DNA from: Candidatus Sulfomarinibacteraceae bacterium
Lineage (GTDB): Bacteria; Acidobacteriota; Thermoanaerobaculia; Thermoanaerobaculales; Sulfomarinibacteraceae
Direction: 5' to 3'
Length of the DNA stretch: 64,000 nt
NCBI GenBank assembly: GCA_963796455.1
Contig: CAWCLO010000003.1
Span: forward strand, 307,574 to 371,573
The notes beneath the pieces were generated by a model. The model made no database searches, was not told the DNA's origin, and saw only the letters and a list, made by a program, of their open reading frames with translations. Made by a program: the position numbers and the translations under genes. Of this stretch, positions 12,265 through 58,741 are shown piece by piece. Position 1 is the first letter of the stretch. Every line of letters starts with the position of its first letter.

Positions 12265-12314
12265 CGCGGGGATTGTAGCACCCGGCTTCACCCTGTGGGC
12301 TGCGCCGCTCGCTC

Positions 12315-12790
12315 GATGCTGGATGCTGGATGCAAGATGCTGGATTTCGAATCACTCTTCTCCAAGACATTGTCCCCGGACGGCATCCAGGGACGCCGAC
12401 GGGGAACGGCGGACAGCGACAGCGAACAGAAATCAGTGTTCAGCGGCAGAGATCAGGTGCATTGACGACGTGGTCACTTCCGGGTCGTTCATCAGAAGGA
12501 ACAGCCCTTGTGGTGCAGGCGTCTCGCCTGCACGCCGTGCGGCCGAGACGGCCGCACCACCAAGGCCGGAGCCCCGAACAAGGTTGAGGGTGATCGTGCG
12601 GTCACCGTCTGAATCGTCCTCAGGTCGATCGCGATCCCGAGAGCGTTTGATTATCTGCGTCCATCTGCGTTATCTGCGGTTTCTCCGTGGGCGAGTGGGC
12701 GGGCACTCAACACGAAGAATTGAGTGCCGTTCGCTGTCGCTGTCGCCCGCGATCCGGACAGCACTGATCCCCGCTCTCCTGGTGACATTG
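12315..12790 (+). mobile_element. Gene-less derivative of the four-helix-bundle element (heptamer repeats, TIR-like end, CAGCGN arm, hairpin 5' arm, REP doublet, ATCTGCG module)
   Basis: (GATGCTG)n 12315-12345; ATCACTCTTCTCCAAGACA 12351-12369; GTGGTCACTTCCGGGTCGTTC 12470-12490; REP doublet 12510-12560; GCTGTC repeats ~12730-12745; right boundary approximate. Confidence 0.65.
12510..12560 (+). repeat. REP doublet copy 1
   Basis: GTGGTGCAGGCGTCTCGCCTGCAC-GCC-GTGCGGCCGAGACGGCCGCACCAC; also at 22247-22297 and 27691-27741. Confidence 0.85.
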
Positions 12791-12827: not shown

Positions 12828-12950
12828 GATGTCATCCTGAGCGAAGCGCCTCTGGCGCGTAGTCGAAGGATCTGCGAACCGAGATCTTTCCTTTTCATCT
12901 CATAGATCCTTCGACTACGCCCCTGTGGGGGCTCCGCTCAGGATGACATC
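12828..12950. repeat. ~46-bp inverted repeat pair (GATGTCATCCTGAGCG...GTCGAAGGATCT)
   Basis: Arms 12828-12873 and 12904-12950 are near-perfect reverse complements. Confidence 0.85.
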
Positions 12951-12994
12951 GGGAGGCGACATTCGCATGAGCGCAGAATCAGTGCCGCGCATCT

Positions 12995-13195
12995 CTACCT
13001 TTCTCCCTTGCCCCTCTGCCCCTCTGCCCCTCTGCCCTGTGCCCTGCTGCTCCTCTGCTCCTCTGCCCCTCAGCGATGTGGAGGCTCGTTCTCCCTTTCG
13101 GGAACGGGACGGGATCGGGAATGGAAACGGATAGGCTCTCCCCTTCTCCCCTTCTCCCTTCTCCTTTCTCCCCTTCTTCTCCGCTTCTCCCCCTG
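12995..13195. repeat. Pyrimidine-rich octamer tandem repeats (CCCTCTGC, CCCTTCTC)
   Basis: Visible tandem arrays; same units recur at 19000-19230. Confidence 0.8.
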
Positions 13196-13239
13196 GAAGC
13201 GGTGAAAGCAACGGGAAGGTGGGCGGGAATTCCTGATTC

Positions 13240-18937: not shown

Positions 18938-19232
18938 GGATTTCGGATTTCGGAGTTCGGAATTTCGAATTCTCCTCGCCAGAAATTCGGATGGCGTCGC
19001 TCCCCTGCCCCTCTTTCCCCCATCTTTCCTGCTCCCTTTCCCCCTTTCCCCCTTTCTCCCTTTCTCCCTTTCTCCCTTTCAGGAACGGTATCCACAGCAG
19101 CCGTTCGATAGCGATAGCGATCCCGATAGCGATAGCGATGGGACCTCTGCCCCTCTGCTCCTCCGCAATGTGGGCTACGGTTCTCCCTTTCCCCCTTTCT
19201 CCCTTTCTCCTCTGCCCCTCAGCCCCTCCGCA
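18938..19232. repeat. Mosaic of short tandem repeats (GGATTTC, CCCTTTCT, GATAGC, CCCCTCTG)
   Basis: Directly visible arrays in non-coding gap. Confidence 0.8.
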
Positions 19233-19290
19233 ATGTGGATGAAACAATTCACCACCCCCTCCGTGTTGACTGGTATGGAGGCACTCACCC

Positions 19291-22086: not shown

Positions 22087-22465
22087 GGATCACTCGTGCC
22101 CAGGTGCGAGTTTCGGACAACGCTCAGGGACAGCGACGGGGAACGGCAGACAGCATCAGCAAACAGGAGTCAGCGGCAGCGTTCAGTGTTCAGGTTCAGC
22201 GGCCGGGACAGTGAACAGCACTCATTCCTTCGGGGCTCCGGCCTTGGTGGTGCGGCCGTCTCGGCCGCACGGTGTGCAGGCGAGACGCCTACACCACAAC
22301 GGCTTTTCCTTATGTTGAAAGACCCCGAGGTGGCCACATCGTCGCCTGTACTCCTGATCGCTGCCGCTGCTCTCCGTCGCTGTTGTCTGTCGCTGCCGCC
22401 GACTCCTGTTCACAGGCGCTGTCCTCGGTCGCTGTCTGAGACACTGTCCCGGGCAAGAGTGATCC
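22087..22465 (-). mobile_element. Gene-less MITE-like derivative with TIRs, containing hairpin 5' arm and REP doublet
   Basis: TIRs GGATCACTCGTGCCCAGG (22087-22104) and CCCGGGCAAGAGTGATCC (22448-22465); arm 22317-22337; REP 22247-22297; CAGCGN/GCTGTC arms. Confidence 0.7.
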
Positions 22466-22617: not shown

Positions 22618-22971
22618 TCAAGACTTCGGGTTGAGCAATCTCCAAGTCATTGCACGCACCTGATCAAAGGCCTTCATCGCGTCACTGGCTCTGTTCGGGC
22701 TGATCGCCCCGGCGTGAGCGAGAAGCTGCAAGTGGCTGTCGACCTCTTTCGCCGAGGCGTAGGCGATTCTCCAGGGGTTCGACCGGTCTCTACCGACTCG
22801 GCCGTGCCCTTCTGCCAGATTCGCAGGGACCGAACTTGCCGAACGGATCACCTGATCGGCTATCGACTTCAGAGGAGCTGGAACCCTCATCACGAGCTTG
22901 ATCGCGATTCCTGCGGCTTCGAGTGCTTTCGAGTGGGCAACGAGGTTGGTGTTCGTGGCGGCTTTGGACAT
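22618..22971 (-). CDS. Four helix bundle protein (23S rRNA IVP/Avd-like), copy 1
   Basis: DQVIRSASSVPANLAEGHGR...AYASAKEV motif; GGAGG RBS before ATG 22971. Confidence 0.9.
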   Translation of the reverse strand: MSKAATNTNLVAHSKALEAAGIAIKLVMRVPAPLKSIADQVIRSASSVPANLAEGHGRVGRDRSNPWRIAYASAKEVDSHLQLLAHAGAISPNRASDAMKAFDQVRAMTWRLLNPKS

Positions 22972-23109
22972 GGTCACCTCCGGGTCGTTCATGCCCCTAC
23001 CCACAAGCCGGTGTGGCGGCCGATGTCAAGGATGCCCTGCACCCTGCCTGTCCTTGACATCGGCCGCCCACCGGCTACCCCTTCCTTTGAACGACCCGGA
23101 GGTGGCCAT
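22970..23109 (-). promoter_or_regulatory. Conserved nested hairpin leader occluding RBS/ATG, copy 1
   Basis: Outer 21-nt stem, middle AGCCGGTG/CACCGGCT, inner GGCCGATGTCAAGGA/TCCTTGACATCGGCC. Confidence 0.75.
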
Positions 23110-23416
23110 TTCGCCACATGAACTCAAGACTGCTGCCGCTGCCCGCCGTCGCTGACCACTGACCGCTGTCCCTGTTCGCTGTTGCCTGTCGCTGCCAACT
23201 GTCGCTGCCGCTGTAATTCGGACGCGGACGCGGACACGGGCAGCCGCGAACCGGATATGCCAACAACCAACCCGTAAACCACGTGTTGTCAGGTGGGTAA
23301 CATCACGTGACAATCTGTTTTGGACAGCAGTGATCCTGCATCCTGCATCCAGCATCCAGCATCAAAAAACGCGGACCGAAGCCCGCGTTTTTCGAGGATT
23401 GAGGTCGTTCGATAAA

Positions 23417-26809: not shown

Positions 26810-26965
26810 CCGGAAACCGCGTCCGCGTCCGCGTCCGTGCCCGAATTGCAGCGGCAGCGACAGTGTCCAGCGTCAGCGACAGGCAACAGCGTCAGGGATC
26901 AGCGGTCGGCGATCAAGGGCTGCGTTCAGTTTCCAGCGGCAGCGGTCAGGAGTACAGGCGGCGCA

Positions 26966-27105
26966 GTGGTCACCTCCGGGTCGTTCGACAGAAGGGGTAG
27001 CCGGTGGGCGGCCGATGTCAAGGACAGGCAGGGTGCAGGGCATCCTTGACATCGGCCACCACACCGGCTTTTGGGAATGGGCATGAACGACCCGGAGGTG
27101 ACCAT
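26966..27105 (+). promoter_or_regulatory. Conserved nested hairpin leader occluding RBS/ATG, copy 2
   Basis: 26966-26986 pairs with 27085-27105; 26999-27006 with 27062-27069; 27010-27024 with 27043-27057. Confidence 0.75.
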
Positions 27106-27457
27106 GTCCTCAGCCGCCACGAACACCGACCTCGTTGCCCACTCCAAAGCCCTCGAAGCAGCAGGCATCGCGATCAAGCTCGTGATGAGGGTTCCAGCTC
27201 CACTGAAGTCCATAGCCGATCAGGTAATCCGGTCGGCAAGTTCGGTCCCTGCGAATCTGGCAGAAGGGCACGGCCGAGTTGGTAGAGACCGGTTGAACCA
27301 CTGGAGAATCGCCTACGCCTCGGCGAAAGAGGTCGACAGCCACTTGAAGCTCCTCGTCCACGCTGGGGCGGTCAACCGGAATGGAGCCGGTGAAGCGATG
27401 AAGGCCTTCGATCAGGTCCGTGCCATGACCTGGCGGCTCTTGAATCCGAAGAATTGA
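27104..27457 (+). CDS. Four helix bundle protein, copy 2
   Basis: Same motif; 117 aa from ATG 27104. Confidence 0.9.
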   Translation: MSSAATNTDLVAHSKALEAAGIAIKLVMRVPAPLKSIADQVIRSASSVPANLAEGHGRVGRDRLNHWRIAYASAKEVDSHLKLLVHAGAVNRNGAGEAMKAFDQVRAMTWRLLNPKN

Positions 27458-27574
27458 GCGCTGTTCGCTGTCGCAGACTTCTGTTAGCTGACCCTGTCCG
27501 CTGTAGCTGTCACTGTCGCTGCCGCTGCCGCTGGACGCTGTCTGAGACCCTGTCTTGACCTCGAGCGACCGAAG

Positions 27575-27741
27575 ACGGAGAAACCGCAGATCACGCAGAT
27601 GAACGCAGAGAGTAGGGCAGGAACGTCGAGCGCCGTCTATTGAAGCTGGAGGGTCTCGAGCGTTTCGCGGAGCACGGGGCTCCGGCCATTGTGGTGCGGC
27701 CGTCCCGGCCGCACGGTGTGCAGGCGAGACGCCTGCACCAC
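27575..27741 (-). repeat. REP doublet (27691-27741) plus ATCTGCG module (27575-27609)
   Basis: Reverse-complement matches to 12510-12576 and 12653-12688. Confidence 0.8.
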
Positions 27742-28109: not shown

Positions 28110-28196
28110 TCGCTCTCGCAATCGGGATCGTCATCCGGCCCCGTTGACTGTCCGAGGTCATTCGATAGCGATACCGATTGCGAGAGCGATAGCGAT
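28110..28196. repeat. Inverted repeat built from GATAGC-type hexamers
   Basis: TCGCTCTCGCAATCGGGATCG (28110-28130) vs CGATACCGATTGCGAGAGCGA (28169-28189). Confidence 0.7.
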
Positions 28197-28204
28197 GCGG
28201 CTGT

Positions 28205-39440: not shown

Positions 39441-41369
39441 ATGGCGGTCGGCAACCTGGGAGTATTCGTCGGACCTGATCTCGATCTGTCGGACCAATTG
39501 CGGTGGGCCGTTCGCCTGGCCGAGGCCCGCAATCTGGACATCGTGGTGTTCCAACGGATCGAAGGCAGTGAGCGGCAAACAGTCAACGTGCCCCTGGACG
39601 GATCCGCCGAAGGCGAGGCCGCAGTGGCGGCAGGCGAGGTCTTCCAGGCCATCGAATCCATGCCCATTCTTCGTGCGGGACCTCGACCTGAAACGGCGGA
39701 AGATGAAGCCTTAGATGACGATGACTCGGTCATCCACGTCCAGTTGAAACTGATCCGCTGCGCCAACCTCCCATCTCTCAGGGAGCTGCTCCTGGCCGAG
39801 GTTCGCAAATCCAAACTCAAGCTCTTCACCGTGGTGCGCAAGGACCTCGGGGGCACCGGCAGCGAGATCACCAGGGAGCGTCGTCAGTTCCTCCGACACG
39901 TTCCGTGCGAGGTGGTCCATTGCAGCGGCTTCAACGAGGACAACGATCTATCTCGGATCCTGGTCACCGTCGCTTCGGGGCCCCATGCAGCGTCGGCATT
40001 GAAAATCGGTCGGGATCTCGCTTCTTCGTCCGGCGCCACCTTGACCGCCCTCCGCGTCAACCCTTCAATCGGCCCCGATGCCGAACAGGTCGGCGCCCGG
40101 CGCCTCGACATTCTGATCAAAAAGTCCCTTGGAAAAGACGAGGGCGAAGTTCTTCGGCGAGTGGTGGTGGACGATCAGATCCCCCGCGGTGTTCGCCGGG
40201 TTTGGGATGAGGGGAACTTCGACCTCGTGATCACCGGTGCGTCGCGGGTCGGTATGCTGGGAAGCCGGGTCGAGGGCAGCATCGGCGCCCGGCTTGCCAG
40301 GGATGAATCCGGGCCCACGGTCGCCGTCGTCAGTTCCGCTTCGCCGGTAAGAAATCGATTTCTCGCCGTGCTGGAAGGGGCGATCGAGCGGCTGGTGCCG
40401 CAGATCGATCGCGAGGACAGGGTGGTACTGGTCGAACGGGTGCAGTCGAGTTCCCATTCGAATTTCGACTTTTTTGCCCTGATGGTTCTTTCCACCTGCA
40501 TCGCCGCCATCGGTCTGATTCAGAACTCGGCCGCCGTCGTCATCGGCGCCATGCTGGTAGCTCCCCTCATGACGCCGCTGCTCGGTCTGGGTCTCGCCCT
40601 GGTCCAGGGCAATCCCGTCCTGGCTCGAATCTCCGTACGCTCGGTCGGTTTCGGTGTCGTGGTCGCGCTCCTGGTTGGATTGACGGTCGGTTTCCTGACC
40701 CCCGGCTTCGAAGAACCGACCCGTGAAATGCTCGGACGCGGCGGACCCAGCGTGCTCGATCTTTTTGTCGCCTTCGCCTCCGGGCTGGCCGCCGCCTATG
40801 CCTCCTCGAGGCCCGGTCTCCTCGCCGCACTTCCTGGGGTCGCCATCGCGGCCGCCCTGGTTCCGCCGATCGCCACCTCCGGTCTGGCCCTGTCTCTCGG
40901 TAACCTGGATCTGGCCTTCAATGCCCTTCTGCTCTTTGTCATCAACATGGTCACAATCGTCCTGGCGACCGTGGTCAGCCTCTGGTTTGTCGGTCTGCGC
41001 AATATCAAGAAAACCTCGCGCTGGGCGGTTCGAGTGGGCGGCGCGGTCCTCCTTGCAGTGTTGGCGCTTGGCGTCTATCTGAGTATCAAACCCACTCCGA
41101 TCCCCACCGCGGCAGGTCTCCCGACCGATTTCATGGAAGACATCCAGCGCCGGCTCGGTGACGACTATCGCCTCGAGGGAATCGGGGTCGCGTATGACGA
41201 GCTCGGCGTGCAACTCAATGTTCGGGTCGTCGGTAAAACGTTTGCGCCTGAGAACGTGGCGAACGAAGTCCGTGCGGCAGCGCGCGAACATTTCGACAAA
41301 CCGGTGAGGGTCCGAATGCTCACCCAGGTGGATGCCGAAGCGGAGGCCTTTGGATCCCAGCTCGACTGA
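39441..41369 (+). CDS. DUF389 membrane protein with N-terminal USP-like domains
   Basis: NSAAVVIGAMLVAPLM, LPGVAIAAALVPP; N-terminal RILVTVASGPHA, DLVITGA. Confidence 0.85.
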   Translation: MAVGNLGVFVGPDLDLSDQLRWAVRLAEARNLDIVVFQRIEGSERQTVNVPLDGSAEGEAAVAAGEVFQAIESMPILRAGPRPETAEDEALDDDDSVIHVQLKLIRCANLPSLRELLLAEVRKSKLKLFTVVRKDLGGTGSEITRERRQFLRHVPCEVVHCSGFNEDNDLSRILVTVASGPHAASALKIGRDLASSSGATLTALRVNPSIGPDAEQVGARRLDILIKKSLGKDEGEVLRRVVVDDQIPRGVRRVWDEGNFDLVITGASRVGMLGSRVEGSIGARLARDESGPTVAVVSSASPVRNRFLAVLEGAIERLVPQIDREDRVVLVERVQSSSHSNFDFFALMVLSTCIAAIGLIQNSAAVVIGAMLVAPLMTPLLGLGLALVQGNPVLARISVRSVGFGVVVALLVGLTVGFLTPGFEEPTREMLGRGGPSVLDLFVAFASGLAAAYASSRPGLLAALPGVAIAAALVPPIATSGLALSLGNLDLAFNALLLFVINMVTIVLATVVSLWFVGLRNIKKTSRWAVRVGGAVLLAVLALGVYLSIKPTPIPTAAGLPTDFMEDIQRRLGDDYRLEGIGVAYDELGVQLNVRVVGKTFAPENVANEVRAAAREHFDKPVRVRMLTQVDAEAEAFGSQLD

Positions 41370-41378
41370 GAACAGCAC

Positions 41379-41732
41379 TCACTTCGTCGGGTGCAACAGT
41401 CGCCAGGTCATGGCACGGACCTGATCGAAAACCTTCATCGCTTCACTGGCTCCGTTTCGGCTGATCGCCCCGGCGTGGGCGAGGAGCTGCAAGTGGCTGT
41501 CGACCTCTTTCGCCGAAGCGTATGCGATTCTCCAGTGGTTCAACCGGTCTCTACCGAATCGGCCATGCCCTTCCGCCAGGTTCGCCGGGACTGAACTGGC
41601 CGACCGGATCGCCTGATCGGCTATCGACTTCAGAGGAGCTGGAACCCTCATCACAAGCTTGATCGCGATCCCTGCTGCTTCGAGGGCTTTGGAGTGGGCA
41701 ACGAGGTTGGTGTTCGTGGCGGCGTTGGACAT
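41379..41732 (-). CDS. Four helix bundle protein, copy 3
   Basis: Same motif; ATG 41732. Confidence 0.9.
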   Translation of the reverse strand: MSNAATNTNLVAHSKALEAAGIAIKLVMRVPAPLKSIADQAIRSASSVPANLAEGHGRFGRDRLNHWRIAYASAKEVDSHLQLLAHAGAISRNGASEAMKVFDQVRAMTWRLLHPTK

Positions 41733-41870
41733 GGTCACCTCCGGGTCGTTCATGTCCATTCCCACAAGCCGGTGTGGCGGCCGATGTCAAGGATGCCCTG
41801 CACCCTGCCTGTCCTTGACATCGGCCGCCCACCGGCTACTCCTTCCGTTGAACGACCCGGAGGTGGCCAC
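41731..41870 (-). promoter_or_regulatory. Conserved nested hairpin leader, copy 3
   Basis: 41731-41751 pairs with 41850-41870; identical 48-nt core. Confidence 0.75.
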
Positions 41871-42010
41871 TTCGCCGACTGGACTCCTGATCGCTGCCGC
41901 CGCCGCTGTCCTCTGTCGCTGTTCCCGGTCGCTGGTCACTGTCGCCGCCACTGAACCCTGTCGCTGGACACTGTCGCTGCCGCTGCATTTCGGGCACGGA
42001 CACGGACTCG
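41871..42010 (-). repeat. CAGCGN-rich left arm of element copy 3
   Basis: Minus strand GTCCGTGTCCGTGCCCGAAATGCAGCGGCAGCGACAGTGTCCAGCG matches the left arm of copy 2 (~26827-26872). Confidence 0.75.
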
Positions 42011-50107: not shown

Positions 50108-53100
50108 CTACCCGAGCACCACGTGGACCTCGTGCTCACGAGCGTCGTCAGTCAATGGGACGAGGGCATCTGACGGTAGCCGGGTCCCGTCGAGGCTGAG
50201 ACTGGAGATTCCCCGGCAGACTCCCTGCGGGTTTTCGACGGTGATCCGGTAGAGCGCGGCGCCGTGCCGGTAGGCGATCTCGAAGTGCTTCCAATCCTTC
50301 GGAATGCAGGGATCGATGCGGAGGGCGGAGCCCCGCTTCTGGAATCCGAGAATCCACTCCAGACCGAGGCGGTAGAGCCATCCCGCAGCCCCGGTGTACC
50401 ACGTCCACCCTCCCCGCCCCACGTTCGGCGGCTCGGTATAGACATCCGCGGCAACTGCGAAGGGCTCCACTTTGTACACGTCGACAGCGGTGCGGTCGCC
50501 GGCGTGGTGGATGGGGTTGAGCAGGTTGAACAGGTCGAGGGCCGTGTCGCCCTCGCCGAGCATGGCAAAGGCGACGGCCGACCATGTCGCAGCGTGGGTG
50601 TACTGCCCGCCGTTTTCCCGGACACCCGGGAGATAGCCCTTGATGTATCCGGGGTCCAACGGGGTCCGGTCGAATGGCGGCGAAAAGAGCGGCATCAGGC
50701 GATCATCGCGCCGGACGAGTCTTTGCTCCACTGACTTCATGGCGCGACGTGACCGCTCCGGGTCGCCCGCACCGGAGATGACCGCCCACGACTGGGCTAT
50801 GGAGTCGATCCGGCACTCTTCGTTGGCCGCCGATCCGAGCGGCGTGCCGTCGTCGAAAAAAGCGCGCTTATACCACTCCCCGTCCCACGCCTCCTTCTCA
50901 AGGGCAGCCTCGACAGACGCGGCCCTGCTCCGCCACCGCGTCGCCCGTTCGTCTTCGCCGCGGGCCTCGGCGACGCCGGCGAATTCCCGCAGGTTCATGA
51001 GCAGAAACCAGCCCAGCCAGACGCTTTCTCCCCGGCCCTCACGGCCGACGCGGTTCATGCCGTCGTTCCAGTCCCCGGCCCCGATCAAGGGAAGGCCATG
51101 GCTGCCCACTTCGAGGCTACAGTCCAGCGCCCGCGCGCAGTGTTCGTACAAAGTCGCCCGATCTTCTGACTGCTTGGGCTCGAAGTAGGCCTCTTGTTCA
51201 TCTTCCTCCAGGGCCGGTCCCTCGATCCACGCGATTTCTTCGTCGAGCACCGCCTCGTCGTCGGTCATCCGGAGATAGCGAATCGCCGCGTATGGCAACC
51301 AGAGACGGTCGTCAGATATCCGGGTCCGCACGCCCCGGCCCGTCGGGGGGTGCCACCAGTGCTGGACATCACCTTCGGGGAACTGCCGGGCAGCGGCCCG
51401 AAGGAGATGTTCGCGCACGATATCGGGTCGCGCCACTGCCAGGGCCAGGACATCCTGGAGCTGGTCGCGGAACCCGTACGCCCCGCCGGACTGGTAAAAG
51501 GCGGACCGGGCCCTGATCCGGCAGGAGAGCGTCTGATAAAGGAGCCAGCGGTTGAGGAGGAGGTCCATCGAGGGGTCGGGAGTCTTCACCTGAACAGCAC
51601 CCAACACCCGGTCCCATCCTTCAGTGACGTCGAGAAAAGCCGCGTCCAGATCCACCTTACGGTAGTGCTCGACCAGCGATCGGGCGCTTTCGCGGCTCGC
51701 CTCCTCGCCGAGCAGGAATACGAATTCCGTGCGCTCGCCCGGTTCGAGCTCTACGCCCGCCCGCAGGGCGACGCACGGGTCGAGGCCCGCTCCGGTCTTC
51801 CCCGAAAGCTCCCGCTCCAGCGACGCGGGTCGATCGAGACCGGCGTTGCGGCCGAGGAACTCGAGGCGATCGCCGGTGCAGGTGGTCTGGCGCCCGCCGA
51901 GGTCGGCGAAGGCTATCTGATCGGAGAACTCCGCGTTCCAGGAGTTGCGCGCAAACATCGCGCCGGTCGCGGCATCGATCTCGGTGACCACGAATCCTGC
52001 GGAGCCGCCCCTCGCGACCCCCAGCACCCACTCCGCAAAGGCCGTGACTGAAAGCCTCCGTTTGCGTTTGGACCGGTTCTTCAGGGTGAGTCGGGAGATC
52101 TTGACGGGGTCCGACGCAGGAACGAACTGCACCAGGTCCAGCGCAATGCCGTGGGCCGTGTGTTCGAAGCGACTGTAGCCCTGGCCGTGCCGCGCGACAT
52201 ATGGCGAGTCCTCCTCGCGGACAGGGAGCATGGTCGGTCCCCACACGAGGCCGCTGTCCACATCTCGGACGTAGAACGCCTCGCCCGGAGGGTCGCTGAC
52301 TGGATCGTTCGACCAGGGGGTGAGCTTGTTCTCGCGGCTGTTTGCAGACCACGTGTGGCCCGAGCCCGCCTCCGAGGTCTGAAACCCGAAAACAGGGTTG
52401 GCCACCACGTTGATCCAGGGAGCAGGAGTCCACTGCCCGGTCCCGAGCGCCATGACGTACTCGCGGCCGTCCGTCGTAAATCCCCCCAGGCCGTTGAAGA
52501 ACTCGAGATTCAGAGCGGGGGGGGCAACGGTTCCGGTCGACTTTGGTTGCGTGCGGAGCGGAGGCGGAACCGGCTCCAGCGTTGGCCTCCCCAGCCGGAC
52601 CACCTGCTCGGACAGCGTGCCCCGGCGCGCCAGGACCTCCAGCCGCGCCGCGGCGTGCAGCAGGTTCTGGTCCGCCTCCGGCACCAGGTCGGCCCTCAGC
52701 ACGAAGACGCCTCCGTGTTCCCTGTGCGTCTCGTGGCCGGCCGCCGACTGGCTCGCACGCACCATCCCTTCGAGAGACTCCTGGAGGCCGGCTGCGTAGG
52801 ACGTTGCCTGCGCATTGAGGATCACCAGGTCGGCGGATATCCCCTTCCGGTACCAGTACTCGTGCGCCCGCAGGAGCTGCCTCGCGACCTCCCGCTCCTC
52901 TTCCGTCTCGATGCGCACCAGAGCGATCGGCAGGTCACCGGAGATCCCGTAGGCCCAGAGCCCTGACTGGCCGCCGCGGTTTTTCGCCAGCTCCGGAGGC
53001 GCCGCACGCAGCGTGGGATCGACATAGAGCAGGCGATTCGCCAGCCGCTGGAAGAGATGCGCCTCGTCCTGGGTGATCCGGAGATGGTGCAGCTGGACCT

Positions 53101-56100
53101 GGGCCTGGGTCCAGGCCAGCGAGCTCGCCCTCTCGAAGGTCGCCTGCTGGCGGTACTTCTCAGCCCCCGTGAGAGCCTCCTCCCGCGAACCCGCCACCAA
53201 GGTCGTGAACACGAGGTGAACCGTGCCGCCACCGGGAATCGCAACCCGCTGCCGCAAGCTCATGATGGGATCGAGAACAGTCCCCACCGTGTTCGAGAGC
53301 GGTTCCCCGCCGACCACGGACAAGGCCGCCCGAACCCCGCGGCCGCGGCCCAGAAAACGCTCCCGATCGCTTTCGTACTGCAGCTCGCCGAGCGGTTCCT
53401 CCTCGAGAGCAATCAGATGTGCGAGCCACACCCGCGACTCGTCCGCCGACCGCGGCCGACGTGACGCCAGCAGCGTCCCCAGCCCCGGCACGAATTCCGT
53501 CTCCACGAAGAGATTGGAAAAAGCGGGATGGGCCTCGTCGGCGGCCTGCGGAGCCAAAACCACCTCGGCATAGGAGGTGACATCGATCTCACGGTCCCGG
53601 TCCTCGAGATTGGTGACCGTCAGCCGGCGAAGCTCGGCATCGTCCTCCGGGGAGACCACGATCTCGAGGGTGGTCGACAGCGACTGGTGCCGCTGCATGA
53701 TCTTGGCGCGATCCTCGGAGTAGACAACGTCGTAGGCGTCCGCCTCGGTCCCGCTGGGCTGGAATCCGGCCGACCAGAGGTCACCGGTGTCCGCGTCCCG
53801 CAAGTAGATGAAGGAGCCCCAGCAGTCACGGGTCGCGTCCTCCCGCCAGCGGGTGACAGCGAGGTTGTCCCACCGACTGAAGCCGGCGCCGGCAGCCGTG
53901 ACCATCACGGTGTAACGGCCGTTGGACAGGAGGTGAGTGCGCGGCGTGATGTCATGCGGCGATTCAAAGCGGCGCAGGGTCGGCGGGACGAGGCCGCGAA
54001 CGAGCGCAGCCACCCGCACCTCTTCGGCCCGCGGCCGGGCAACCGCAACCGAGCGTGGCGTTCGTTCCTGGAGCAGGAGTTCTGCGGCCTGGATCAGGGG
54101 ATGGGCGTGAAAACGCCTTCGTGTCACGCCATCGTGAACCACGTTCCCCAGGGCGACGACGGTCATCCCCTGGTGGTGGGCCATGTAGGCCCGTACAACA
54201 GCCACCCGGTCGCCGTCGGGCAACCTCGACGGGGTGTAGTCGAGGGCTTCGTAGAAGCCGTACGCGCCGCGGGCCCCGGCCTCCTCGAGACGGGCAAAGT
54301 TTTCCAACGCGTCCTTGGGATCGACCATGGCCGCGAGGGCGGTAGCATAGGGAGCCACGACCACGTCCTCGCCCAGCCCTCGTTTGAACCCCAGACCGGG
54401 AACGCCGAAATCCGAGTACTGATATGTGAGGTGCACGTCACGAACGTTGTAGGCGGATTCGGAGACCCCCCACGGGACCTTCCGGTCCACGCCGTAGCGG
54501 ATTTGATACCCCACCACCAGCCGGCAGGTGAGGTCGAGCAGGCTGTGGGCAGGCTGCCGCATCACGAGCAGCGGCATGAGGTACTCGAACATCGACCCTG
54601 ACCAGGAAACGAGGGCCGCCCCGCGGCCCACCGGCGTGAGCGCCCGGCCCAAACTGAACCAGTGCCGGGGCGACACGTCGCCCTTGGCGATGGCGACAAA
54701 ACTCGCCAGTCTGGCCTCGGAGGCCAGAAGGTCGTAGCAGCCGGGATCGCGCGTTTGATCGGCCACGCGGTACCCGATCGAGAAGACCTTGCGCGAGGTG
54801 TCGAAGAGAAACCTGAAGTCCATGGCCTGGACCATCGCCTCGGCACGCACTGCGAGGTCGGAGAAGTGATGGCCGAGAATCGTCTCCGCCCTCGCCTGTC
54901 CCTCGATCCTCTCGCAGAGCCCGTCCGTTTCGAGGTCCCGGGTGTGGCTCCGGACAGTATTCCAAACAGCCTTCGCCCAAGCCAGGACCTCTGTCGTGGA
55001 AAGATCTTCGTCGTTGTTGGTAAGGCTCGAGGCGACGTCCACGAGCCTTTCCGCCCGGGCCCCGAGATCTTCGAGACATCGGGCCCACTCGCCTGCGGCC
55101 GTCGGGGGACCCTCGAGAACGGCCAGTATTCCTTCCGCCTCTTCACGGAGCTGTCCCACCGCTACCATGGGCGAAAGCCGCGGAGGCCCGACCTTTTCGA
55201 GCGACTCGAGTACCAAGTAGACGGCGTCACCGACGCCCGCCAGGGTTTCTGGGCCGATAGACCGCCGGTGCGCGAGCTCGCGGCACGCCTGGGCGAGGGC
55301 GATCAGGTGCCCGGCGAGGTTGCCGCTATCGACGGTGGAAATGTAGATCGGCTCCAGCGGCTTCAGGTCCAGGGTGTCGTACCAATTGCAGAAGTGGCCC
55401 TGGACGCGGTGCAGACCGGCCATGGTCTGCAACGTCGCCTCGAGCCGATCCGCAGTGTCCTGAGCACCGATCCAGCCGAAGTCGTGCGCGCTCATCACGC
55501 TGAGCAGATAAAGGCCGATGTTCGTCGGTGAGGTTCGGTGGGCCCGGACCGGCTCGGGGTCCTCCTGGAAGTTGTCGGGCGGGAGGGCGTGCTCCTGGTC
55601 GTCGACAAAGGTGTCGAAGAAACGCCAGGTGCGGCGGGCGATGAGCCGCAGCGAGCGCGTCTCCCGGGTGGAAAGCGTCAGCAATGCCGCGTCCTCCGAT
55701 GGCACGCTGACGCGGAGGGCGAGGGCCGGAGCCAGCACCCAGAGGAGAATGAAAGGGGCCGCCACGGGAAGGGCCTCCGGTTTGAACGCCACGCAAAGCG
55801 AGCCGGCCCCGAGGGCGACCAGCACGCCCCAGCGAAGGTCTCGGTAGAAAGACCTCAACGTCAGGGTGGCCCCATAGCCCGCCTGCGCCGCCGTAACCCA
55901 CTCGAGCATGTTTCTCCGCGTCAGGTAGATCCGCCAGAGCGTGCGTACAACGGCATCCGCCATCAGACACGCCTGATCGGCGAGCATGGTGACAAGGAGC
56001 AAGGTCTGCGACGAGGCGACGAAGATGTCTCGGCCCACCGCGCGCAGGTAGCTTCGCTTGGAGATCCGCGATCGCCGCGGGCGGAGATTGTCGAGGACCG

Positions 56101-58741
56101 GGAAAAAGGCCGGCACCGCGATCGATCCCACGATCAGACCGGCCCACAGGAGCGCAGGGACATCGGGCAGGATCCAGGCGGTCACCAATACCAGCAACGA
56201 CGACGGCGCGACCAGGCTTCGGCGGAGGTTGTCCACCATCTTCCACCGATCCTCGACGGGAATACGGGTCTTCTCTTTCCGCCCCGCGGTGTTTCGCGCG
56301 TGGCCAAGGATCCACGGCAGGAGCTGCCAATCGCCCCGCGCCCAGCGATGGTGGCGGCGGGCGGCCACCTCGTAGTTGGTGGGGAACTCCTCGAAGAGAT
56401 CCACGTCGGTCAACAGCCCCGCGCGCGCAAAGACGCCCTCGAAAAGGTCGTGACTGAGGAGCGCGCTCTCCGGGACCTTGCCCTCCAGAGCCGCCTCGAA
56501 GATGTCGACGTCGTAGATCCCCTTCCCCGTGTACGAGCCCCCCTCGAAGAGGTCCTGGTAGACATCGGACACCGCCGCCGCGTAAGGGTCCACGCCGCCG
56601 GGGCCCGAGACGATCCGCTGGTAGGTGGTGCTGCGAGGGCCGGTCGGCAGCGACGGCGTGATCCGGGGTTGCAGGATCCCGTAACCCCCGACGACGCGTC
56701 CCTTGCGCAAGTCGAACCGCGGCCGGTTGAACGGGTGCGCGATCGCCCCGATCAGGCGGTAGGCGGCCCCTTTGGGAAGCCGGGTGTCGGCATCCAGGGT
56801 GATGACATAGCGAACCCCCTCCGGCACCTCGGGCGGCCGTCCGTTGATTGGCATGAACGTGGTGTCAGTCGCGCCACGCAACAGACGGTTCAGCTCGTGG
56901 AGCTTGCCCCGCTTCCTCTCCCATCCGATCCACTTGCCCTCGCCCTCGTTCCACAGACGGCGCCGATGCAGCACGAGGAAACGCTGTCCCTCTCCGGTCG
57001 CGCCTTCGTACTTCTCGTTCAGACGCTCGATGCCCTCGATCAGGGCCGCCAGAAGCTCGTCGTCTCCGCGCCGGTGCTCGTGGCTGGAGTCTGTCCAGTC
57101 GGAGAGGAGGGCGAAGTGGAGGTGTCCTTCGGAGTTCGCGAGGTAGTGCACCTCGAGCCGCTCAAGCTGCTCTTCGATGTCGGCCCGGCTGTTGAGAAAC
57201 GTGGGCACGACGACCATGGATCGGAATTCCGCAGGCACTCCGCCGGAGAGTTCGAGCTTGGGGTGCAACCTGGGTGCGACGAGAGACGTGACCATGCGGT
57301 GGACGAGAACCACCGCGATCTCCGAAGCGGGCGCGAGACCCAGGATCCCCAGCAGGACTACGACCTGGAGGCCCGCCCCGGCGTTCCAGGTGAGCAACAG
57401 GGCGCAGGCGAGCAGGACGGCGGTGATGCCGGCAATCGCTCCCAGGTAGCCGACGATCGCATGGGCGCGATAGAAGCGGCGGAGTCTGATTCGCAGGGGA
57501 ACACGCAGGCCGAGATATTTCTCGAACGCCAGCCGTCCCTGGGACAGGATGTAGTACGCCGGATCCTCCTCGGCAGGCCGACGAATGCTGGCTCGATCAG
57601 GGTCGGTTTCCCGTGGAACGGGCGCGGTTCCCCCCGCCCCCCATTCGCCGGGCCAAGCATCCGTGCTCTCGCGGCCTGCATCGCGCGCCAGGCGCACGGC
57701 ATCCTGTGCCACCTCGAGCTCCGTGTGCCCCGAGCCCCGGGAGAGCAGTTCGATCTGGGTCCGGCACAGGCTCCTGGTCTCGGAGTCCATGTCTGCGAAG
57801 CCCGGGACGGCGCGGAGAGTTTCGTCGACCAGGCTGACCGATTCGAAGAAACCGGTCCAATCGACCGAGGACATCCAGTGCATGCTGGTAATGATGTTGC
57901 AGACGGTGACGTTGGCTGCGCCCTGGGCGTGCTGCTCCCGGGCAATCACCTCATCGGCCGACGTCTCCTGGGCGCTCAGCATCTCGTTGAGTCGGTCCAA
58001 TACCGGAAGGACCGAGAGGTCCTGGTCTCGAAGCCGCTGGAAGAGCTGCATGGCGAAAGCATCGGCGAGAGGGCCGTCGCCCAGGCGCCGCAGAATCTGC
58101 TCCCCCGTCTCCGCCCGCCAGCCGCTGAGACCCAGCAGCCGGTCCGCCAGCTCGTCGGCCCTGGCCCGCGCCTGATGGGAGCGGACGATCAACTGCGCCA
58201 AACGCCGCAGATTCTCCACCAGGGCCACCCGGAGGTGGATGGCGATCGCCCATCCCTCACCGATGGTCAGCGGTTGAACTCGCTGGTAGGCGCGGACGAA
58301 CTGTCGCAGAGTCTCCAGCTGAAACCGGCTGTCGGTGTGGGCGACATAGGCCCAGGCCAGCCCGTAAACACGGGGGTGTCCGACGAGGTGACCTTCCGCG
58401 ATTTTGGGCAACAGACGGTAATAGCCCTTCGGCAGGTGATCCCTGATGTCCCGGATCTGTTCGTCGACGATGTGGAAGTTGTCGAGGAGCCACTCCGCGG
58501 CAGGTGTGATTTCCTTCTTCTCCCGTACCGTCTCGGCAATGTCCCTGTAGGCGGCGAGAAGGACCCGTGCATCGTCATCGATCCGGGCGAGGAGATTCAC
58601 TCTTTTTGACGGCTTCTCCGTCGTCCGTTGTGCGGCGGCCAGGCTCTCGGCGTGCTGCTCCAGGCGCTTCACCCCGAAGATCTCGGCACGGATCGGCTGG
58701 TCGACATGAGGCGCCGCCATGACGGCGTCGGTGGCGCGCAC
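50108..58741 (-). CDS. ndvB: Cyclic beta-1,2-glucan synthase-like protein (NdvB/ChvB; GT84 plus GH94)
   Basis: 2877 aa; [63 protein letters not shown]. Confidence 0.9.

Follow-up and report, generated by a model that had tools for sequence, protein, structure and literature searches.

A nested hairpin ahead of a multicopy PF05635 gene in a Sulfomarinibacteraceae genome as a likely single-stranded-DNA promoter

Why should a small gene, present in dozens of copies, sit behind a long nested hairpin that buries its own Shine–Dalgarno (SD) sequence and start codon? The question is raised by a locus between a response regulator gene and tRNA-Glu in a stretch of 64,000 nucleotides (the window) from a Candidatus Sulfomarinibacteraceae bacterium. 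The gene encodes a four-helix-bundle protein of PF05635, a family related to Avd (PMC10053308, cited, like all papers below, from the portions available to us), and its family profile matches PDB 2gsc (E 2.7e-10; relative of Xanthomonas XCC0516). PF05635/S23p genes are common, and the available text of PMC4990558 treats their function and expression as open questions. A literature search, with most subscription journals outside its coverage, found no paper on this leader.

A preliminary description made from the sequence alone had proposed a 21-bp outer stem, an 8-bp middle stem and a 15-bp inner stem, and all three were recovered (Table 1). The outer stem consists of 20 Watson–Crick pairs and one G-T pair, its 3′ arm holding the SD and the AT of the ATG, and its 5′ arm is the anti-SD in read-through RNA. 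TTGACA was likewise confirmed on both strands, at 27046-51 (+) and 27021-27016 (−). A second in-frame ATG at 27083, additional to the ATG at 27104, had escaped that description. The + strand folds at −110.4 kcal/mol (z −10.4; 0/200 shuffles as good) and the − strand comparably (−111, z −11.3), and the single-strand DNA fold amounts to −56.8 kcal/mol. The Rfam search that had been suggested, run on the window with Rfam 15 at the gathering threshold, left the leader without a family, tRNA-Glu being the sole match.

Table 1. Features of the focal leader, its gene and related copies in the window (positions are those of the window)
Feature	Position	Strand	Remark
Upstream short-repeat array, CCGCGT and CAGCG-type units	26812..26965	+	begins right after response-regulator stop
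Outer stem, 5′ arm	26966..26986	+	predicted non-template strand of downstream duplex when bottom strand folds
Unpaired linker, predicted non-template side of pre-opened bubble	26987..26998	−	
−10-like hexamer TACCCC, bottom strand	26994..26999	−	−12 T paired, −11 A first unpaired, no −7 T
Putative promoter spacer (16 nt): middle stem and outer part of inner stem, 5′ arm	26999..27015	+	length 16-17
Middle stem	26999-27006/27062-27069		8 bp
Inner stem	27010-27024/27043-27057		15 bp
Putative −35 hexamer TTGACA, bottom strand	27016..27021	−	non-template in folded strand
Terminal loop	27025..27042	strand-neutral	18 nt in focal copy
Top-strand TTGACA + 17 nt + T	27046..27069	+	partner arm of −35 and spacer
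Unpaired purine-rich linker, predicted template side of bubble	27070..27082	+	13 nt here; family mode 11
Predicted transcription start (27081-27083) and upstream in-frame ATG (27083)	27081..27085	+	
Outer stem, 3′ arm	27085..27105	+	SD GGAGG 27094-27098; start of ATG 27104
117-aa four-helix-bundle gene, PF05635 23S_rRNA_IVP (S23p/Avd-like)	27104..27457	+	Pfam E 2e-14
Downstream CGCTG-type array, inverted relative to upstream array	27458..27559	+	ends in cut-off right terminal repeat
Second intact window copy	22618..23141	−	both terminal repeats and exact 9-bp duplication
Third intact window copy	41363..41900	−	
Gene-less derivative: outer 5′ arm and linker joined to REP-like palindrome	12464..12578	+	−11 base lost
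Second gene-less derivative of the same type	22229..22343	−	

The core had also been described as identical in three copies, which is true of the window: an identical 61-nt run is common to the three, and 11/141 columns vary among their leaders against 57/351 in the ORF. The number itself does not extend to the genome, which carries 68 full leader copies (~70). The 46-nt core is exact in 52 of the 68 and the 18-nt loop in 60, an intact ORF lies behind 57, and a pairwise dN/dS of 0.16 over these intact copies indicates purifying selection. The 68 copies are scattered across contigs between ordinary genes, not in a conjugative leading region, and favour neither replication strand (39:28, where all ORFs give 1812:1708).

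For comparison across genera, 112 distinct leaders were parsed from 152 gene hits (8 unparsed); seven with an alternative inner module or a mis-parse were removed by hand, and dropping those >90% alike gave 54, for which the structure was set by hand, RNAalifold recovering part of it (27 pairs). A further 80 metagenome loci served as a held-out set, of which 64 had enough flank and, after 8 unparsed and 14 redundant ones, 42 were scored. The stems covary in the homologous leaders, and the loop does not: both partners have changed in 29 of 47 pairs (168 cells), a value that kinship inflates and that none of 500 shuffles reached, and controls with a slid structure were 28-42% paired. Compensatory change was found at 12 of the 22 outer pairs, and the stem that forms the spacer (26999..27015 here) is free to vary in sequence, with compensation. 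Nearly fixed are TGTCAAGGG, CCCTTGAC, the TAG foot and the outer stem, and the terminal loop, 18-34 nt long, is not conserved across species. The hairpin persists down to ~55% protein identity and its outer stem buries the SD and ATG in nearly all genus-level leaders; in L250, a homolog from another class, the nested hairpin is kept with both outside the stem. Of 94 leaders, 87 have ATG as the upstream codon, and the GTG, ACG and AGG variants keep a purine at +1. In the L139 and G036 copies the only ATG is the one at +1, and in genera with only this upstream ATG the mRNA would be leaderless. A covariance model gave three hits in 149 other genomes of the phylum, none of them before a PF05635 gene (19 candidates scored per genome). 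Several genomes or loci (L033, L043, L057, L061, L064, L109 and L205) carry an insertion of ~130 nt, a structured module of another kind, at the top of the outer 3′ arm, with loss of the upstream ATG and, in some copies, of the usual inner hairpin, whose place it takes.

Which strand is it that folds? An mRNA structure is expected to tolerate G-U pairs on the sense strand. Among 96 non-redundant leaders, 98 cells are A-C, which is G-T on the bottom strand, against 22 with G-T on the top strand; 54 sequences lean to bottom-strand and 7 to top-strand wobble, with 60 against 19 distinct contexts, and the held-out set alone gave 55 against 10 cells and 26 against 2 sequences, the leaders being kin, so that p values overstate the significance. 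Rare variants in the ORF predict an A-C share of 42% only, the flanking arrays under identical scoring gave 340 against 351, and T-to-C and G-to-A changes contribute about equally to the excess. Within this genome the distinct-context wobbles (15 against 8, p 0.21) are not significant. Watson–Crick pairs make up 3634 of 3912 cells and bottom-strand wobbles ~2.5%, and the bottom strand folds better than the top in 61/68, 35/54 and 35/42 leaders of the genome, first and held-out sets, respectively. The type of mismatch indicates that the fold has been selected on the bottom strand and not in the mRNA; the wobble bias alone cannot separate bottom-strand DNA from antisense RNA. The loops bear on this point. 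In 93 loops GCGNAGC occurs on the bottom strand in 38, with all four bases at N, and on the top strand in 11; in the 42 held-out leaders the counts are 22 and 3, and the motif is absent from this genome's own loop. According to the available text of PMC13037366, GCGNAGC forms mini-hairpins that are stable as DNA and much less stable as RNA, and that occur at the G4 origin, ssiA and N4 promoters. A novel cis-regulatory RNA, one of the earlier suggestions, is not favoured by pairing that is almost purely Watson–Crick and by loops with such DNA-type mini-hairpins.

Host promoters here follow TTGAC(A/T)-17-TAnnnT (64 of 2082 sites, against 2-18 at other spacers), and a promoter scan found no full consensus promoter in duplex DNA on either strand of the leader. 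The bottom strand reads TTGACA, 16-17 nt and then TA at the bubble edge. Since TA belonged to the parse of the first set, only the held-out set, parsed without it, tests this dinucleotide: there, bottom-strand TA lies at spacer 16/17 in 37 of 42 leaders and at any other spacer in three at most, and top-strand TA at spacer 16-18 in 0/42. The near-invariant −11 A corresponds to position 26998, which is T on the top strand in 53/54 aligned leaders and in 66/70 full copies in the genome. Variants of the bottom −35 keep TT in 41 of 42 held-out leaders, and the top copy lacks its first T in 7/42. On the top strand TTGACA is followed by 17 nt, T and then 11 nt to the in-frame ATG at 27083; in the held-out set the distance from TTGACA to the upstream ATG is 28-31 nt in 40/41, with modes at 29 and 30, where a 17-bp promoter predicts 29 nt. 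A sense promoter inside the hairpin was rejected, with no −10 after TTGACA on the + strand and A at −11 in 0/53 leaders.

In the folded bottom strand the −12 T is the last paired and the −11 A the first unpaired base, followed by a bubble of 11-13 nt (2 nt longer here than the family mode) and 21-22 bp of duplex whose template arm is the gene's template. This layout is the geometry of an open sigma70 complex. A −7 T is found in 4/53 leaders of the first set and 9/37 of the held-out set, so the −10 is not near consensus. Selection against a −7 T, suggested by the first set, failed in the held-out set, and the idea that host promoters go without it was ruled out by their TAnnnT at spacer 17. As a counterpoint, the 11-nt purine-rich linker on one side of the bubble also fits an SD-to-ATG spacing, and 27070..27082 could be an SD for the ATG at 27083.

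On the observed stems, compensatory changes, strand bias of the wobbles, fixed spacings and purifying selection, it seems likely that the hairpin is a single-stranded-DNA promoter, with a translation lock as a secondary effect, a judgement made from sequence. Once the gene's template (bottom) strand becomes single-stranded it would fold, and the fold would unite the −35 box and TA at the rim of a bubble that is already open; host RNA polymerase would initiate at or near the upstream ATG and yield a short translatable mRNA for the four-helix-bundle gene, and the same outer stem would keep read-through RNA untranslated. Polymerase binding, the start site and silence in duplex DNA are predictions of this model. 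The single strand may be supplied by DNA uptake, by conjugative transfer or when replication stalls, which is the most speculative step of the model; no source of it was found, the ComEC and DprA genes of this genome being near universal. Resident duplex copies would be silent and protein would come from the exposed copy alone; this would account for selection acting on the gene of each individual copy. Second-strand synthesis might also be primed at this site. More tentatively, and at somewhat less than even odds, the cassettes may be selfish elements with a single-stranded-DNA stage, their own single-strand promoter and possibly a priming site, the Avd-like protein being made only from the incoming or displaced strand and acting on that copy.

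The reading that the preliminary description had put first, a translational lock under read-through transcription, can be kept in part. As an account of the whole element, with an mRNA leader that closes the SD and start codon until some signal or nuclease opens it, we regard it as unlikely. The predicted probability that the SD and ATG are unpaired is 0.055 in read-through RNA and 0.44 in an RNA starting at 27083 (a predicted mRNA from 27081-27083 has no anti-SD arm), the outer stem is maintained by compensation, a same-strand gene lies upstream of 37/68 copies by a crude ORF caller, and in Coxiella RNase III removes the SD of S23p (PMC4990558, available part). Against it stand the wobbles, which favour the strand opposite to the mRNA, and L250 with its SD and ATG outside the stem, and it leaves the fixed spacer of 16-17 nt, the unpaired invariant T and the DNA mini-hairpins unexplained. 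The lock is thus a sound prediction that may matter as with Coxiella S23p, and it is not what the wobbles record. Leader sequestration of this kind, in which read-through RNA buries the SD and start codon, is known from IS10 and IS200; there the gene is a transposase, whereas here it is a non-transposase gene and the selected fold is on the other strand.

The bottom-strand TTGACA-16/17-TA might also be an ordinary weak duplex promoter facing outward, whose antisense RNA would arise from the outer arm in the manner of IS10 RNA-OUT. The motif and its spacing are conserved on that strand and some copies carry a full TAnnnT (the 9/37 above). We nevertheless hold this to be improbable. Unlike host promoters, most copies have no −7 T, and the spacer is 16 nt in half of them; the scan gave no promoter on either strand of this leader; and the mirror arm, for which such a promoter would have no use, covaries and places the ATG 29-30 nt from its own −35. 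Little credence is likewise given to the folded bottom strand being an antisense RNA, a 6S-like promoter mimic that binds RNA polymerase and perhaps templates a short sense RNA. Geometry and wobble bias would be the same, and a convergent downstream gene at 44/68 copies could supply antisense read-through; opposed to it are the low RNA stability of GCGNAGC mini-hairpins (PMC13037366, available part), the small share of bottom-strand wobbles among all cells and the lack of an Rfam match.

Beside the single-stranded-DNA promoter that we favour for the core, the question of how the cassette travels has to be answered. Both terminal inverted repeats were found in 34/68 copies; neither is intact at the focal copy, where the terminal-repeat scan found the left one absent. 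An exact 9-bp duplication occurs in 20/65 end pairs and one with ≤1 mismatch in 35/65, against 1.75 in shuffled pairs; this excess indicates that a DDE-type transposase moved the cassette frame. A cognate transposase was not found: the genome's single DDE_Tnp_1 gene lies within different ends, and none was seen next to the repeat at 30 loci taken with flanks of 1.5 kb. The focal site is empty in all 13 relatives in which the response regulator and tRNA-Glu are linked (two further contigs were too short), and the element was matched in 22/41 relatives and in 15/121 genomes of the class. In other species the same core lies within different ends or none, and core and frame therefore have separate histories. 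Mobile insertion cassettes and passenger MITEs of DDE transposons likewise have terminal inverted repeats, 9-bp duplications and no transposase, a likeness that covers the frame and not the hairpin.

Several further observations concern the frame and its derivatives. The framed cassette mostly inserts in GATGCTG/CAGCATC heptamer arrays (window 12311-12345 and 23316-23363, and genome-wide), the source of the 9-bp duplication. The same terminal repeats bound miniature elements of 250-390 bp (L403, L405-L408, L410, L413-L415, L417) in six genomes (G008, G012, G016, G020, G021, G024). At three places in the focal genome, G000 (C10:353281, C4:218060 and C1:372271), a right-type end lies upstream of the hairpin, as if the core had flipped within the frame or two elements had joined. 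One gene-less derivative, with a REP-like double palindrome in place of hairpin core and gene, has been amplified to ~45 places in this genome, and the palindrome also occurs alone at 27691-27741 of the window. Gene-less derivatives are mostly without the −11 base, T being present in 28/79 other hits against the 66/70 full copies; the 79 include some chance matches, and the loss is largely one ancestral change. In some 25 deletion derivatives the break falls within the 5′ arm of the middle or inner stem, with the other end at variable positions of the ORF, and only two have lost the outer 5′ arm while keeping the gene start; possible causes are a polymerase stalled by the folded bottom strand and the purging of copies that have lost the lock. 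No relatives of the protein were found in viral contigs, nor in plasmids with one distant family member as query.

It had also been suggested that the hairpin is a recognition or cleavage site for mobilisation. As a nuclease or recombinase site it might have a REP-like RTAG foot read by a Y1 transposase, or be an invertible segment between the outer arms. There is an RTAG at the foot of the middle stem, the genome holds six Y1 transposase matches, and many deletions begin inside the 5′ arm. The suggestion is nevertheless not supported and seems highly improbable, as derivatives that have no hairpin spread to those ~45 places and the marks of mobility are the terminal repeats with their 9-bp duplications, hundreds of bases from the hairpin; none of 70 cores is inverted, which also disposes of an invertible promoter switch. 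Three of the Y1-type matches score equally, in frames of ~340 aa, two of them 3 kb apart (G000 C4:1144044-1147347, C8:150867-151193). Least probable of all is an absence of function, with template switching, the process of quasi-palindrome correction, keeping the palindrome perfect while the cassette drifts: templated correction would give the same near-complete Watson–Crick pairing, but it predicts no strand bias, fixed spacer, invariant unpaired base or persistence to distant protein homologs. A diversity-generating retroelement with Avd as partner was rejected, since the 90.5% complete genome has no RVT_1 match and there is no adenine bias, A-to-N changes not being dominant.

If the hairpin is a single-stranded-DNA promoter, it resembles known systems. 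Three classes of plasmid single-strand promoters have been described, their start sites determined by 5′ RACE (Wen et al. 2025, PMC12672017). As we read the sequences, class 2 (klcA, ardA) and class 3 of pESBL and F have the same outer stem, bubble and paired spacer, a −35 adjoining a large loop, the −35 and TA on the gene's template strand, and an ATG at the top of the outer 3′ arm. They differ in lying in plasmid leading regions and in having a −7 T (TAAGAT, TAACGT), a bubble of ~3 nt, a loop of >100 nt and the gene's SD outside the stem, whereas here the bubble measures 11-13 nt per side, −7 is free and the SD is usually inside. Our own reading of the class-2 hairpins of F and pESBL finds TTGCAT, TAAGAT and GCGAAGC on the template strand, GCGAAGC being beside the −35. 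The likeness of the class-2 5′ arm is marginal (11-15/200 shuffles as high; 6-15/200 when the M.EcoGIX-operon hairpin is counted in) and the 3′ arm gives no signal (82-143/200), and neither blastn nor the covariance model gave a hit against the klcA/ardA and M.EcoGIX-operon hairpins. In class 1 (Frpo1/Frpo2, ssi1-3) a stem-loop rebuilds −35 and −10 for host RNA polymerase (Masai and Arai 1997, in PMC9849209 and PMC11541004, available parts). The shared trait there is a stem-loop active as single-stranded DNA and silent as duplex, and the difference is that the Frpo/ssi elements serve conjugative transfer and anti-defence genes, unlike here; blastn against Frpo1/2 gave a best E of about 1, and the covariance model had no hit at those hairpins. 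By analogy, the element would work like a single-strand promoter, whether or not it belongs to classes 1-3.

The single-strand origins (sso) of rolling-circle plasmids, primed by RNA polymerase (PMC8860593 and PMC5714925, available parts), are also long hairpins on single-stranded DNA read by the host enzyme. They prime the replication of a circle, and the cassette has no known Rep gene or circle; its predicted RNA enters a gene with its own SD, unlike at these origins. The minus-strand origin of filamentous phages is another single-strand origin primed by RNA polymerase. In viral contigs the −35 inverted repeat gave at least 124 hits, against 18 for a scrambled control, and in 18 of the 124 it extends into a paired spacer. 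The 13 extended loci with ORFs scanned include three microviruses and one inovirus, the 44 mostly non-extended loci two clearly single-strand phages, and the micro- and inovirus motifs carry GCGNAGC on the gene-sense strand. The repeat with its GCGNAGC loop was seen between microvirus genes A/B and D, or right after inovirus gene I (L285, L328, L349 (701-732); L299, L342 (701-736); L316, L324, L308). These are candidate complementary-strand origins, and L316, L324 and L308 match the covariance model at 50-66 bits.

Among relatives of the protein itself, the S23p intervening sequence of Coxiella rRNA belongs to the same family and has its gene boxed by complementary ends with heptamer repeats, and its protein seems silent under normal transcription; that element lies in rRNA and its terminal stem is cut by RNase III, and the available text describes no promoter-like leader hairpin (PMC4990558). 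The window contains no rRNA, and the cassette is not inside an rRNA gene.

Other observations were made along the way. Two hairpins built like this one turned up elsewhere: one directly follows the transposase C-terminus at the right end of an IS3-family remnant (L452:1500-1650, G278), where it might prime second-strand synthesis of an IS circle, and one lies upstream of a tyrosine recombinase gene (L451:1490-1700, G056). The window carries further intergenic repeats, namely a palindrome pair at 12849-12928, 8-mer C/T-rich arrays and GATAGC arrays (12990-13200, 18999-19237, 28110-28197), and a 2877-aa ORF at 50108-58741, with GH94 and glycoamylase domains in the 1630 aa scanned, which we take to be probably a cyclic beta-1,2-glucan synthase.

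For unexplained leaders in general, the strand of the wobbles offers a cheap means to tell a DNA fold from an RNA fold. If the proposed single-stranded-DNA promoter is real, it would be the first on a chromosomal element without a transposase, would carry this kind of promoter beyond plasmid leading regions to a chromosomal cassette of 70 copies, and would add a form of promoter with a fully open bubble and no −7 T. It would explain why the gene is under selection in each copy although the frame moved in trans. To our knowledge, S23p/IVP proteins have never been seen expressed; the promoter would name the condition under which they are made, and the protein would have to be sought in DNA uptake, conjugation or replication stress, not in normal growth.
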